Shown piece by piece: positions 6,001 to 63,000 of a DNA stretch of 64,000 nucleotides (within the stretch, counting starts at the first letter, position 1; each line of letters begins with the position of its first letter). Origin of the DNA: Holophagales bacterium (GTDB lineage: Bacteria; Acidobacteriota; Thermoanaerobaculia; Multivoradales; UBA5704). A program made the position numbers. Location of the stretch: the NCBI GenBank assembly GCA_031404815.1, contig JANNIH010000072.1, positions 12,100 through 76,099 of the forward strand. Reading direction: 5' to 3'.

Positions 6001-9000
6001 GGAACTCCTGTTTCCAATCTCCCGCCTCGGCGAACTTCGGCTGGGCGGTCTTGGCGAGCAGGAACGGTCCGAGCACCAGATAGTCCATCTCGGTGCGCAT
6101 GAAACAGCGGTAGGCGTCCTCGGGAGTGCATACGATCGGCTCGCCGCGGACGTTGAAACTGGTGTTGACGACCACCCCGTAGCCGGTCAGCTTTTCGAAT
6201 TCCGAAATCAGCGCGTGGTAGCGCGGGTTGGTCTCAGCGCTGACCGACTGAATGCGCGCGGAGTCGTCCACGTGGGTGACCGCCGGAATGTCGGAGCGGA
6301 TCTCGTTCACCCAATTCAACAGGTCGTCGCTCCGCTCAGGCGTGCCCGCCGGCTGTGGCGTCCGCCGGTCCGCCCGGACCGGGGCCACGAGCAGCATGTA
6401 GGGGGACGGCCGGTCGAGCTCGAAATAGTCGCCCACCCGCTCTTCGAGTACGCTCGGCGCGAACGGCCGGAAGCTCTCCCGGTATTTGATCTTCAGGTTC
6501 ATCAGCGACTGCATCTTGGTCGAGCGGGCATCGCCGATGATCGAACGGGCGCCGAGCGCGCGCGGGCCGAACTCCATCCGCCCTTGGAGCAGGCCGACCA
6601 CGTTCTCCCCCGCGAGCACCTGGGCGACCCGGGGCGCCCAGGCCTCGTCGGATAGCTCTTCGTGGGGCAGGTTGTTCTCGGTCAGATATTCGCGGATCTG
6701 CTCCCGTGAGAATTCGGGGCCGAGGAGGGCGGCGCTCATGCCGTCGCGCCCCGGGGCGCGCACCGGCCGCGGCTTCCCCATCGCGTTGTGGTAGACCGCG
6801 AGGGCGGCACCGAGAGCGCCGCCCGCATCCCCCGCCGCGGGTTGAATCCAGATGTCGTCGAAGATCCCGGCGCGCAGCAGCACGCCGTTCGCGACGCAGT
6901 TGAGCGCGACACCGCCCGCGAGGCAGAGGTTCTTCTTCCCCGTGAGTTCGCGAGTGTGGCGCGCGAGCTTCAAGACGATCTCTTCGGTGACCTCTTGGAT
7001 CGAGCGCGCAAGATCCATCTCGCGCCGCGTGATCCGCGACTCCGGGGAGCGCGCCGGGCCGCCGAACAGGTTCGCGAACCGGTCGTTGGTCATCGCGAGC
7101 CCATCGAGGTAGCCGAAGTAGTCCATGTTCAGACGAAACGAGCCGTCGGGGCGGAGGTCGATCAACTCGCGTTTGATCAGATCGGCGTATTTCGCCTCGC
7201 CATAGGGGGCGAGCCCCATCAGCTTGTACTCGCCGGAGTTCACCTTGAAACCGGTGAAGTAGGTGAACGCCGAATAGAGCAGGCCGATCGAGTGGGGAAA
7301 GCGGATCTCGCGGATCAACCGCAGTTTTTCGCCTTCGCCCACGCCGATCGTGGTGGTCGCCCATTCGCCCACCCCGTCGAGCGTGAGCACGGCGGCCTCG
7401 GAAAACGGCGAGGGGTAGTAGGCGCTTGCGGCATGCGATTCGTGATGTTGGGCAAAGCGGATCGGCACTTCATCCACGATGCCGCACGCTTCGAGCGACT
7501 CTTCTATGTGCGGCGGAATCCAGAGCTTCTCTTTGATCCAGATCGGGATCGCCTGGAGGTACGAGGCGAGGCCGCGCGGCGCAACCGTGAGATAGGTCTC
7601 CAGAATGCGATGGAACTTGAGCAGCGGCTTGTCGTAGAAGACGACCGCGTCGAGCCCCGCTTGCGGGTCGCCCCCGCGTGCGGCACCTTCCGCCAGGCAG
7701 TAGCGGACGGCGTGGCTCGGGAAGCCCTCGTCGTGCTTTTTCCGGGTGAAGCGCTCTTCCTGCGCGGCAGCGACGATCTCGCCATCGACGACCAGGCAGG
7801 CGGCCGAGTCGTGGTAGTAGCAGCTGATGCCAAGGATCTTCATCGCGTCTCGTTCCCTGAACCGTTCAAAACTGCCGCTCGTAGGTCTCGGGGCCCGAGG
7901 GGTGGGCCTCGGTCGAGATCCAATAGGTGGGAAGCTTTGGGTCGGCGCCGTGCGTGATGCCGAGCTTGCCGCGCGCGCGGAGGTAGAGGCCGACCGGCAG
8001 GAAGAACAGATAGAAGATGAGCGGCATCAAGATCCAGGTCACCAGAAGGCCGATCCCCCGACCGAGCTTTTCCACCCCCGCGGTGAGCAGCCGGAACCCG
8101 CCGAGCGGCGAGAGTAGGGCGATCAGGGTGACGACGGCGGCGATCGAAGCGATCACCGAGGCGAGCGTCGGCCGATGGAAGACGAACGCCACGAGCAGGG
8201 CGACGACCAGGCCGACCGAGCCCTGGATCGCACCGCGCACCCGTGCGCCACGGGTGGCCCCGGCGCGCGCCCGGGCCTCCGCCGCGGGATCGCGGCGCCA
8301 TTGCCAGACCACGGCGGAAGGGGCGAGTTTGCGGTCCGTCATCCTTCGAGTTCCTCGTCGGCGATTCAACCGGGGCTTACGGTAGAGACCCGAAGCGTTC
8401 CCTAACGGGTGCAGCCTGCGGGCGGCGGATTCTAGCCGCGGACTTCTTCGGCACGCAAGCGAAGCGCCAACCGACTTGGTCGTGGTCAGGCCTTTCCGCT
8501 GGAGGGCGAGCTTGTCCGCGCGGCGGGTGTGGAGGATCGTATTGATCTGCGCCGGTTCGGTGATCGCGCCGAGGCTGGCGAGGACCTGCCGGTCCGGAGA
8601 CCCGCCCTCGGCTGACGAGGCACGCGGGGCGTATTCCTGGACGAAGAAGAAGAATCCATCTAGAATTACTCTATGTCGAGACGACTAGCGGTCGAGGTTC
8701 CGGAAGAGATCGGGGTTTCCGTCAAGACGGCGGCGAAGCGAGAGGGTTTGTCGGAGGAGGCGTGGCTCCGCCGAGCCATCGAGCACGGCCTGCGCAACGG
8801 AGTGCCTCGTGAAACCCCTCTGGCTCGCTTGGCGGCGCTCTCGGCACCCACCGCCGATATCGAAGCAATGATCGCCGAGATTGAAGCGAGTTGGGGTTGA
8901 AGGTCTTTCTCGATTCCAATATTCCGATGTACGTAGCGGGGCGCGATCATCCGAATCGCGACGCCGCATATCGATTTCTCGAGAAAGTTCAAGCTGGCAC

Positions 9001-60000: not shown

Positions 60001-63000
60001 CGCTTTACCGCGTTCGGCTGGCAGGTCGCCACGATGCCCTTGCCTTCCTCTGGCGGGTTGATTCTCGGCGAGATGTTCGGCCAGCTCGAGCGCCTCTCTT
60101 GGCCGAAGTTGCCGCGCTTCGGCGCCGATCGCGCCCACCTCTTCGCCGAAGCGCTCCGGCGGTCGTTCGCCGACCGCTATCTGCTGGCCGATCCGGCGAC
60201 CACGCGCGCCGACGCCGCCCAACTGCTCGACCCCGCCTGGCTCGATCGCCGCGCCACTTCGATCGATCGCGGCAAGGCGTCCCCCTCGAAAGAGATCTCC
60301 CCTTGGCCGGGCGAGGCGCCCGCGGCCGAGAAGCCCGAAACGACCAGCCTCTCCGTGATCGACGGGGAAGGCAACATGATCGCGCTCACCACCACGCTCA
60401 ACGATCTTTTCGGCTGCGGCCTGTACGTCCCTGAGATCGGTTTTCTCAACAACGAGATGGACGACTTCGCGACCGCTCCGGGTCGGCCGAACCTGTACGG
60501 GCTGATCCAGGGCGAGGCGAACGCGGTGGCGCCGGGCAAGAAGATGCTCTCGTCGATGAGCCCGACGATCGCCTGGCGCGCCACGCCCTCGGGCGAAGAG
60601 GCGATCGCGCTCGGCGGTCGCGGCGGTTCGCGGATCCCCACCCATGTGGCGCAGGTCCTGCTCAACATGATGGTGGATGGCGACTCGCTCGCCGCCGCCC
60701 TCGGCCGCCCCCGGTTGCACCATCAATGGCTGCCCGATCAGATCGAGGTCGAGCCCGACACGTTTTCACCCGAGACCCGCACCGAATTGGAGCGACGAGG
60801 TCACGCGATCCAGCCCGCGATTCAAGGCGCCCGGGTGTTTGCGATCCATCGCTTGGCCGACGGCCGAATCGAGGCCGCGGGCGACCCGCGCGGACCGAAC
60901 GGCGCCGCAGTGGTCGATCCGGAGCGCTAGGCGAAGATCTTTCCAGATACACTCCGGCCGGTTTTTCTGCCATGAGCAAGGGGAGTCCGAGCATGGTCCA
61001 GGTGCTGGTGCCCAAAGAGCGCCGATCCGGCGAAACGCGCGTCGCCGCGACGCCGGAGACGGCGAAGAAGATGATCAAAGAGGGGCTCGCCGTCACGGTC
61101 GAACGGGGTGCCGGCGAGGCCGCCTACTTCTCCGACTCGGCCTACGAGGCGGCGGGCGCGACCCTCACGGACGCTCCCGATTGGCTGGCGGCCGACGTGA
61201 TCCTCAAGGTCGCGCCGTTTGCCGACCACGAATCGGCCAAGCCCGGTGCGCTCGCGATCGGCCTGTTCGCGCCGCATGGTCCGCTCGATCGGGTGCGGCG
61301 ACTGGTCGCCGGCAAGGTCTCCACCCTGTCGATGGAGCTGGTGCCGCGCATCACCCGCGCCCAGGGGATGGACGCCCTGTCGTCTCAAGCGTCGATCGCC
61401 GGCTACAAGGCGGTCCTGCTCGCCGCCACCCACCTGCCGAAGTACCTCCCCCTCCTAATGACCGCCGCGGGCACGATCAAGCCGGCGAAGATCGTCATCA
61501 TGGGCGCCGGGGTCGCCGGTCTCCAGGCGATCGGCACAGCGCGTCGGCTCGGCGCCGTGGTCGAGGTCTCGGACATTCGCCCGGAGGTGAAAGAGCAGGT
61601 CGAATCGCTCGGCGCCCGGTTCATCCAGCTCCCCATGCTCGAGCAGGAGAGCGGCGCCGGAACCGGCGGCTACGCCCGCCAGATGGGCGAAGATTTCCTC
61701 GTTCGCCAGCGCGAGATCGTGCGCGAGCGGCTGACCACGGCCGACGCCGCGATCACCACGGCCCTGGTGCCGGGCCGGAAAGCGCCCACCCTGCTCACCC
61801 GCGAAATGGTCGAAGCGATGCGCCCCGGGTCGGTGATCATCGACCTCGCGGTCGAACAGGGAGGCAACTGCGAGCTCTCACAGGCCGACCAGGAGATCGT
61901 CCACAACGGCGTCCGCATCTTCGGCCCCTCGAATCTCCCCGCGACCCTGCCGCACGACGCGAGCACGCTCTATGCGAGGAACGTCCTCGCCCTGCTTCTC
62001 CACGTCACAAAAAAAGGCGAGCTGGCGCTCGATCCGGAAGAAGAGATCGTGAAGGCGACCCTGCTCACCCACGACGGCCGGGTTTTCCACGCCCCGACGG
62101 CAGAGCGGTTGGCGGCGGAGGCTGGCGGCTGAGCGGGCGGGGAAGGCAACGCCGGGGCCTACTCGGGACCGAGAAGGACCCTCAGCTTTTGGGAGATCAC
62201 GACCACTAGATCGGGAGGAAGCCGGACCAAGAACTCAGCACGGCGTGCCCGCCAATCCAGGCTTTTGACTTGATCGGCGAGGACCACCCCAGAAACGGCC
62301 AGGTTTTCCGGAAGCGGCACCTCGAACGGATACCCCTTCACCTGCGATGTGACCGGGCAGAATAGGGCAAGACCAACCCGGGCGTTGTAAGCCTTCGGGG
62401 AAAGAATGACCGCCGGGCGACGGCCGGCCTGCTCATGTCCCGCCTGAGGGTCAAACGTCAGACGGACGACATCGCCTAGATCAGGTACATAGACCACTCA
62501 CCAAACCTCGTTCCCGACTGCCGGGCCGGTTGCGATCTCTTCGTGAAGATTCTCCTCGGTGATTCCCGCGAGAAGCTGTTCCAGGGTAAACACCGGGGCA
62601 GGGCGCGACGAGATCACGATGTCACCTTCGTTCACCGAAATCTCGACCGCTGTGTCCTCTTCAAAGCCAACACCTTTGGCGAACACCATCGGAATCCTAA
62701 CTGCCAGGCTGTTACCCCACCGTTGGACCTTGCCGTGCATCGCGCGCCTCCTGTATCTACAATGAGTCTACAGGTCGAGCTTCTCGTCGGCAAGTCGCCC
62801 CAACGCGGACGGGTGATTCCCTGCGGAGCGGGTGTCGGGATGGCTTCACATCTTGACCAATCAGAATTGAATCGCTAACGTAGATCAACCCTCGCCAATT
62901 TGTACTTCGCATTCACTATGGTGCCGCCAAGGGCGCGGGTGTCGGCCACATTCGACTACCAGAATTCAACCCAACAAACGCCCGCGGGGGCCAAAATGCA

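Follow-up and report, generated by a model that had tools for sequence, protein, structure and literature searches.

How do chromosomal toxin-antitoxin (TA) cassettes that encode no recombinase come to lie between long direct copies of neighboring housekeeping sequence? This question is raised by a 64,000-nt stretch of a Holophagales bacterium metagenome-assembled genome (MAG; contig JANNIH010000072.1, positions 12,100 to 76,099), hereafter the window, in which two cassettes with PIN/VapC-like toxins are each bracketed by a 48-nt direct repeat. A preliminary description of the window had reported the bracketed cassettes, and had proposed that the repeats were copied from adjacent gene boundaries and that the cassettes share a mode of insertion through a common, undescribed mobilization mechanism. 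We find that the repeats are real, that both pairs are footprints of insertion, and that both cassettes are discrete mobile units. On balance, we lean towards viewing them as ordinary horizontally acquired type II TA cassettes and the repeats as scars of homology-driven insertion of foreign DNA.

Two cassettes bracketed by 48-nt direct repeats

Direct repeat 1 (DR1) pairs 11455-11502 with 12283-12330 at 47/48 identical positions, and direct repeat 2 (DR2) pairs 50149-50196 with 51700-51747 at 45/48. Maximal ungapped extension gives exactly 48 nt for both. The longest exact local direct repeat in the window is 36 nt, compared with 14-16 nt in 20 Markov shuffles, and DR1 and DR2 are the sole short-range repeats of such kind in the window. 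Weak similarity (5/9) extends over 9 more nt beyond DR1. A reading of DR1 as a 57-nt repeat, with asymmetric mismatches (5/24 vs 0/33) marking a foreign arm, was dropped on account of these poorly matching outer positions. No comparable gene-end duplications were found in a survey of ~1.5 Mb of other fetched loci, where similar matches were paralogous genes or intergenic elements resembling repetitive extragenic palindromes (REP-like), and no direct precedent for TA cassettes flanked by duplicated gene ends was found in the literature searched. Domain calls were made with Pfam and NCBIfam on open reading frames (ORFs) chosen across the window, a scan that was not exhaustive.

Cassette 1 lies at the junction of a VWA-domain protein gene and maf. 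Along the minus strand, the VWA gene is followed by DR1 copy B, and then come the promoter, the AbrB-type antitoxin and PIN genes, a 17-nt filler (11503-11519), DR1 copy A and maf. The features are as follows.

10822..11484, minus strand: maf, Maf-like nucleotide pyrophosphatase gene (Pfam Maf, E 6e-59)
11455..11502, minus strand: DR1 copy A, pseudo-copy of the VWA 3' end plus the true maf start (TTG at 11484)
11520..12282, minus strand: cassette 1 mobile unit (promoter, AbrB/MazE-type antitoxin, PIN toxin), 763 bp
11561..12003, minus strand: PIN-domain toxin gene (PF01850)
12001..12243, minus strand: AbrB/MazE-type antitoxin gene, 80 aa (Pfam MazE_antitoxin PF04014; NCBIfam AbrB domain TIGR01439)
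12283..12330, minus strand: DR1 copy B, true VWA 3' end (last 5 codons plus TAG), 3-nt spacer and pseudo-copy of maf codons 1-10
12316..14910, minus strand: VWA-domain protein gene, 864 aa, with its stop 3 nt from the maf start in relatives

In the relative L001, whose Maf is 87% identical to that of the window, the site is empty; the VWA gene ends in ...SIPGYYP* and runs through TAG-ATC-TTG into maf with nothing between. DR1 copies the VWA-stop/maf-start junction, as the preliminary description had it, whereas DR2 falls inside a gene (truA) and not at its boundary. DR1 copy B joins the cassette 1 promoter without a spacer, and its VWA-end part is identical to that of L001. The VWA pseudo-end in copy A differs by one synonymous-type change (CCG to CCC). 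The tandem VWA paralog was considered as a source of this pseudo-end and was ruled out, as the paralog end (...RGYYP*) uses different codons.

The same unit recurs at ~87% nucleotide identity in unrelated contexts in L168 (2995-3758) and L169 (626-1322). Homology to both loci stops at 12282, the inner edge of DR1 copy B, and DR1 is therefore target DNA and not part of the cassette. At the other side, homology to L168 ends ~17 nt short of DR1 copy A. The L169 copy lies between unrelated genes, and the L168 copy lies beside a DDE_3 transposase gene, in tandem with another AbrB-like cassette. The sister strain L173, an independent NCBI assembly that is 99.2-99.5% identical to the window, carries the identical repeat-flanked arrangement with an identical antitoxin protein. 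Because an independent assembly reproduces both DR1 and cassette 1, neither is an assembly artifact.

Cassette 1 has the layout of an AbrB/MazE-PIN type II TA module, with an AbrB/SpoVT-type DNA-binding antitoxin followed by a PIN toxin. The start codon of the PIN gene has been lost, being GCG in the window vs GTG/ATG in homologs (M-A-L-R-F-L-L-D-T-S). The first start that could be used lies beyond the LLDTS acidic motif, so that no full-length toxin ORF can be translated, and the source annotation gives just 95 aa (P0161). The PIN toxin is probably inactive or truncated. In L169, the start of the PIN homolog has been lost by a 1-nt deletion, and toxin decay appears to have arisen independently in these two copies. 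The TTG at 12312, which is the pseudo maf start of DR1 copy B, shares its frame with the antitoxin ATG at 12243, and no stop codon intervenes; translation of region 12244-12312 from this TTG could possibly yield an N-terminally extended antitoxin of 103 aa.

Two further observations concern these neighborhoods. In L168 (2411-3992), the neighboring cassette starts with a similar ribosome binding site and start region (CAAGGAGAAC..ATGGTCAC). A further CTTGACA promoter-like box comes next, and the DDE_3 transposase and a SIR2_2 gene adjoin; the region may be an array of TA cassettes. The 5' boundary of maf also adjoins a TA-like gene in the more distantly related Thermoanaerobaculia MAG L005 (5486-5998), where a Phd/RelE-like ORF ends immediately before maf, without repeats.

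Cassette 2 lies between truA and a tRNA-Ser gene. On the plus strand, truA with DR2 copy A comes first. After a 10-nt spacer there follow three minus-strand features, namely the fic remnant, vapC and vapB, and then a leader of 47 nt and DR2 copy B. About 24 nt then separate copy B from the tRNA-Ser promoter, after which come tRNA-Ser and gltX.

49535..50302, plus strand: truA, tRNA pseudouridine synthase gene, intact (Pfam; homologs)
50149..50196, plus strand: DR2 copy A, within truA, codons for GTMIEVGLGARSVED
50299..50900, minus strand: fic pseudogene (188-aa ORF) with a 592-nt internal frameshifting deletion at 50727/50728
51051..51452, minus strand: VapC-2, PIN toxin, 133 aa (PF01850, E 3e-12)
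51449..51652, minus strand: VapB-2 antitoxin, 67 aa (Pfam VapB_antitoxin PF09957, E 2e-19)
51700..51747, plus strand: DR2 copy B, orphan truA fragment, codons GTMIEVGLGNRSVEE, 47 nt upstream of vapB
51827..51919, plus strand: tRNA-Ser(GCT)

The vapB-2 and vapC-2 genes overlap by 4 nt, and their domains and layout are those of a VapBC module, in which the toxin would be an RNase that the antitoxin neutralizes. DR2 copy A lies 106-154 nt before the truA stop, and the bracketed segment therefore holds the last 106 nt of truA. In relatives, transketolase (tkt) precedes tRNA-Ser-gltX, and homology to these tkt-tRNA-Ser-gltX loci begins again at 51769. Unrelated genes follow truA in relatives, with or without a cassette that encodes a SocA_Panacea-domain protein, and without repeats.

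Strain variants of cassette 2 were found on two Logan contigs (k=31 assemblies). L172 is 100% identical to the window over 51581-50150 (truA end, fic remnant and vapC). L171 is 98.7% identical over 51729-50313 (DR2 copy B, leader and vapB) apart from 592 extra nt, and because these give an intact 394-aa fic gene, the window fic is a pseudogene. At the fic stop codon, the sequence of L171 parts from that of the window and continues into further TA-like ORFs, and a truA-like segment accompanies vapBC-fic in this short contig. Both contigs break where the DR2 copies match exactly over 31 nt, as expected for k=31 assemblies of any genome with two true copies. Without fic, the vapBC-2 pair is found at 90.7% identity in L170, where a beta-lactamase-fold gene lies on one side and an ABC transporter gene on the other; in this other context VapC-2 is 95% identical and the copy is repeat-free.

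The three differences between the DR2 copies fall in two codons, GCT vs AAT (Ala vs Asn) and TCT vs TCG (synonymous). The clade consensus at the Ala/Asn codon is GAT or GAG, and Asn is present in a natural truA allele (P0004). With two changes in a single codon that lead to an amino acid found in functional alleles, and one synonymous change, the copies resemble two truA alleles that diverged under selection and not the drift of a dead in-situ duplicate. Identity of the window truA to three relatives is 0.76-1.0 upstream of DR2 and only 0.56-0.60 over the 48 nt that follow it, where the relatives keep 0.79-0.96 among themselves. Judged from these sequences, the allele-like differences and the drop in identity indicate that the present truA 3' end came with fic-vapBC, and that DR2 copy B is a displaced resident fragment.

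Insertions elsewhere in the clade were also compared. Copies of the cassettes in L168, L169, L170, L177 and L178 have no flanking repeats. The SocA_Panacea-domain gene downstream of truA, together with a 105-aa ORF (a TA-like pair), is present in L081 (7237-8274) and L085 (7289-8282) and absent in L083 (7252-7272), and is thus polymorphic among relatives; it has no flanking repeat. In L179 (GCA_040005235.1; 1733-3001), an 831-nt insert with a gene for a secreted-looking protein of 182 aa lies between two direct copies of a whole vapB (219 nt, 94% identical), and a second PIN/PSK_trans_fac pair adjoins. On its sequence, this is a third duplication-flanked insert in the clade. Its duplication of 219 nt makes repeat length variable, as expected if the repeat equals the length of shared homology.

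Origin of the repeats

Homology-driven insertion would proceed as follows. Incoming DNA, either circular or linear, would have brought, beside the cassette, its own short version of the target gene end. A circular donor would integrate by one Campbell-type crossover with the resident copy, and a linear donor by homology-facilitated illegitimate recombination (HFIR), also called end displacement. By either route, the homologous stretch would end up on both sides of the insert and both neighboring genes would stay intact. At cassette 2, the insert would have supplied truA with its present 3' end, fic and vapBC, and the displaced resident truA fragment would later have been cut to ~48-56 nt by a rearrangement joining the tRNA-Ser promoter. 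At cassette 1, a stop and a start that lie 3 nt apart would tolerate just those insertions that duplicate the junction, so that survivors would carry repeats. TA addiction would further counter-select pop-out between the 48-nt repeats, and TA cargo may be found between such repeats because the addiction module opposes its loss.

Both routes have described counterparts. In an E. coli lacZ-plasmid conjugation assay, 56/60 Lac- recombinants were single crossovers with 109-950 bp duplications around the insert (PMC3240628). As in that Campbell-type integration, the inserts described here lie between direct duplicates of the homologous target segment, and the repeat is as long as the shared homology; the inserts encode no dedicated recombinase, and pop-out through the repeats is possible. 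Unlike in the plasmid cases, the shared stretch is just 48 nt (31-36 nt exact), a natural TA cassette forms the cargo and the circle is postulated. Displacement of gene ends by HFIR has been put forward for rhs and for arrays of type VI secretion system (T6SS) effector-immunity genes (PMC5361080). In such C-terminal displacement, which concerns rhs, cdi and T6SS arrays, DNA anchored by homology provides the gene with a new end and adds cargo, while the old end is displaced downstream and becomes an orphan, which fits the order truA, fic-vapBC, orphan truA fragment. Unlike in those systems, the target here is a housekeeping gene, there is a single displacement and the orphan measures ~48-56 nt.

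Several points weigh against this account. That both repeats measure exactly 48 nt is a coincidence under a pure recombination model. A homology of 48 nt (31-36 nt exact) is also near the lower limit for RecA-dependent recombination. The circle model accounts for spread and not for the first event. At cassette 2, the truA patch after DR2 varies within the clade, which leaves the signal of a foreign 3' end suggestive, and the sequence after DR2 copy B is not a native truA end, so that an extra rearrangement must be assumed. An origin of the repeat copies from donor and recipient alleles agrees with the DR2 sequences, while DR1 has 1 mismatch and neither maf nor VWA shows a divergence step relative to L001. 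Cassette 1 thus has no foreign-looking neighbor, and since its repeat copies differ at a single position of 48, they may have arisen there by duplication de novo. A search for the source of the 17-nt filler elsewhere in the window gave no informative match.

The same evidence can be set against four other explanations. A rather doubtful one is that the repeats are the attL/attR sites of integrase-mediated elements, namely islands in the 3' part of truA and at the VWA/maf junction that either decayed to their TA genes or, as integrase-less elements resembling cis-mobilizable elements (CIME), were mobilized in trans. Like genomic islands and CIME, the loci combine repeats of tens of bp (~50 bp, around foreign DNA) with accessory TA cargo, a target whose 3' end is restored by the insert, as is typical of integrative elements, and a nearby tRNA gene, which DR2 copy B adjoins. 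The L171 variant is larger, with an intact fic and its further TA-like ORFs, and TA genes are typically the last to persist as islands decay. Unlike islands, these inserts measure 0.8-1.5 kb, and no integrase, serine recombinase or tyrosine recombinase was found in or near them among the scanned window ORFs (Pfam; scan not exhaustive), the only hit being the DDE transposase of an IS481-family element. Cassette 1 is just 763 bp long and has the same boundaries as the unit shows where it occurs without repeats. The cores of DR1 and DR2 are unrelated, and the core site is not reused, as the five homologous cassettes elsewhere lack repeats. The DR2 core had 0 matches in IMG/VR, where the closest fic relatives reach 43-48% identity, and neither cassette matched a plasmid in PLSDB. 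We hold it unlikely, too, that the repeats arose in independent replication or repair accidents without a homologous donor copy, either by template switching (a duplication-insertion resembling microhomology-mediated break-induced replication) or by capture of foreign DNA at a staggered break. The native-looking neighbors of cassette 1, its blunt joint with DR1 copy B, the untemplated-looking 17-nt filler and the lack of a recombinase would suit such accidents. No templated source was found for the filler, however, and at cassette 2 the insert begins in frame with the truA 3' end and the allele-like differences of DR2 require homologous pairing.

The common mechanism put forward in the preliminary description would correspond to a dedicated, undescribed integration system in which a ruler-type staggered cut always duplicates 48 bp of the target site. 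The identical repeat lengths, the TA cassettes within both repeats and the absence of such gene-end duplications from the ~1.5 Mb of other loci speak for it. We nevertheless consider it very improbable, and grade in the same way a variant in which a lineage-specific, trans-acting Thermoanaerobaculia system makes 48-bp staggered cuts at gene boundaries and inserts promoter-bearing TA cassettes while preserving both neighbors. The other four TA loci of the window (VapBC-1, AbiE-like, Fic and MazEF) have no flanking direct repeats, and neither do the cassette copies elsewhere or the SocA_Panacea cassette. No motif is common to the DR1 and DR2 cores (score 11 vs a null mean of 12.7). Within the window, the repeat-free TA loci and the unrelated cores are the two outcomes that the preliminary description had named as refuting its proposal. 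The cassettes have no conserved termini and no significant terminal inverted repeats, a 10-nt pair not being conserved in L168. The DR2 copies resemble alleles, the insert brings a truA end with it, the L179 duplication is 219 nt, and there is no candidate enzyme. The shared mode of insertion thus stands as far as both repeat pairs are insertion footprints of discrete mobile units, and is not supported as to a common undescribed mechanism. The cassettes likewise differ from transposons and insertion sequences with 2-15 bp duplications in their 48-nt duplication, in the absence of a transposase inside either cassette and in the lack of significant inverted repeats. Integron gene cassettes and pdif (XerC/D) modules are known vehicles of mobile TA cassettes (PMC13108822, PMC12907356), and resemble the cassettes described here as compact TA modules that are discrete mobile units between other genes. 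By sequence, however, the present repeats copy host VWA/maf and truA and appear unrelated to attC or dif-like sites. Both cassettes begin with their own -35/-10 elements, unlike promoterless integron cassettes, and no IntI was found in the scanned ORFs.

An origin of the repeats in metagenome assembly, such as chimeric joins at shared k-mers, is hardly credible. The source is a MAG contig, and the breaks in L171 and L172 fall precisely on the 31 nt over which the DR2 copies are identical. Against this, L173 independently reproduces DR1 with cassette 1, L172 (at 100%) reproduces the truA end, fic remnant and vapC, and L171 reproduces copy B, leader and vapB; a chimeric join would not make two copies and yet leave truA intact.

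TA-like loci and genomic setting of the window

Six TA-like loci are present among housekeeping genes in the 64-kb window by Pfam/NCBIfam, which bears out the number given in the preliminary description, although no antitoxin partner was recognized for the Fic ORF at 39742-40341.

8673-9298, plus strand: VapBC-1, with VapC/PIN at 8891-9298 and an upstream, weakly VapB-like 75-aa ORF at 8673-8900
11561-12243, minus strand: AbrB/MazE-type antitoxin and PIN (cassette 1)
28999-30068, plus strand: AbiE-like pair, with an AbiEii nucleotidyltransferase at 29325-30068 (PF08843, 40 bits)
39742-40341, minus strand: Fic-domain ORF, 199 aa
~50.3-51.7 kb, minus strand: VapBC-2 and fic pseudogene (cassette 2)
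62159-62740, minus strand: MazEF, with MazE at 62498-62740 and MazF at 62159-62497

These loci resemble the VapBC, MazEF, AbiE and Fic/Doc type II families in their domains and layout, with the antitoxin first and an overlapping or abutting toxin. They depart from standard type II TA modules in that one PIN is start-less, one fic is a deletion pseudogene and the Fic ORF at 40 kb has no recognized antitoxin. A 109-aa ORF (28999-29328, plus strand) lies upstream of the AbiEii gene and overlaps it, and a 326-aa minus-strand ORF in this region had no Pfam match.

The window, from a soil-type Acidobacteriota genome, has a G+C content of 66.5%, and its nearest relatives are uncultured Thermoanaerobaculia/Acidobacteriota MAGs. 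TruA and GltX are 88-91% identical to those of L081-L089; an exact look-up of the Maf protein gave no match. Most genes are housekeeping genes, including those for CHAT, carbamoyltransferase, two VWA paralogs, mnmA, SLT transglycosylase, DivIVA, acyl-CoA synthetase, RuvB, UvrD, truA, gltX, an rlmN-like gene, TerC, GGT and Ald. The window is rearranged relative to the related MAGs (L001, L081-L089), with synteny breaks at ~10.8 (beyond maf), 41.56, 50.29-50.30, 51.77 and 53.45 kb, and most of these breakpoints have a TA locus at them or adjoining. The gene orders in relatives are gltX-tRNA-Ser-tkt-dagK-ruvB-uvrD...truA-cysQ and maf-(684-aa ORF)-rlmN-like; tkt, cysQ and the ATP-sulfurylase gene are absent from the window. 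Other features of the window are listed below.

9550-10870, minus strand: IS481-family insertion sequence, with DDE transposase and a 6-bp target duplication
12316-17751: tandem VWA paralogs (864 and 917 aa), 72-74% identical in DNA over several blocks, an arrangement kept in L001-L003
28433-28990: DivIVA

The IS481-family element has perfect 48-bp terminal inverted repeats (9560-9607 / 10814-10861). It interrupts the 3' end of maf and takes the place of the last maf codons. The element is missing in the sister strain L173, where the intact maf encodes 208 aa, and it is therefore a strain-level polymorphism. Just upstream of divIVA is a match to the Rfam small RNA Acido-Lenti-1 (28220-28265, plus strand, 40 bits), and 44 nt around this match are tandemly copied at 73% identity (28159-28202 / 28206-28249).

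Spread of TA cassettes in the lineage

How chromosomal TA cassettes without a recombinase spread between and within genomes is poorly understood. If it were true, a lineage-specific 48-bp system would be the first mechanistic answer to how such cassettes move. The TA genes themselves are ordinary, and the loci are well-resolved examples of known recombination footprints for which no new mobilization mechanism is needed. Their value for the question of TA spread is modest. The two loci provide footprints at base-pair resolution: a relative shows the empty site, the units occur in other contexts too, and strain variants are at hand. These footprints suggest that TA cassettes spread here via generic homology-assisted recombination that uses copies of neighboring gene ends. 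Duplication of the junction would permit insertion into very compact gene boundaries, and addiction modules may stabilize repeat-flanked inserts that would otherwise be unstable.

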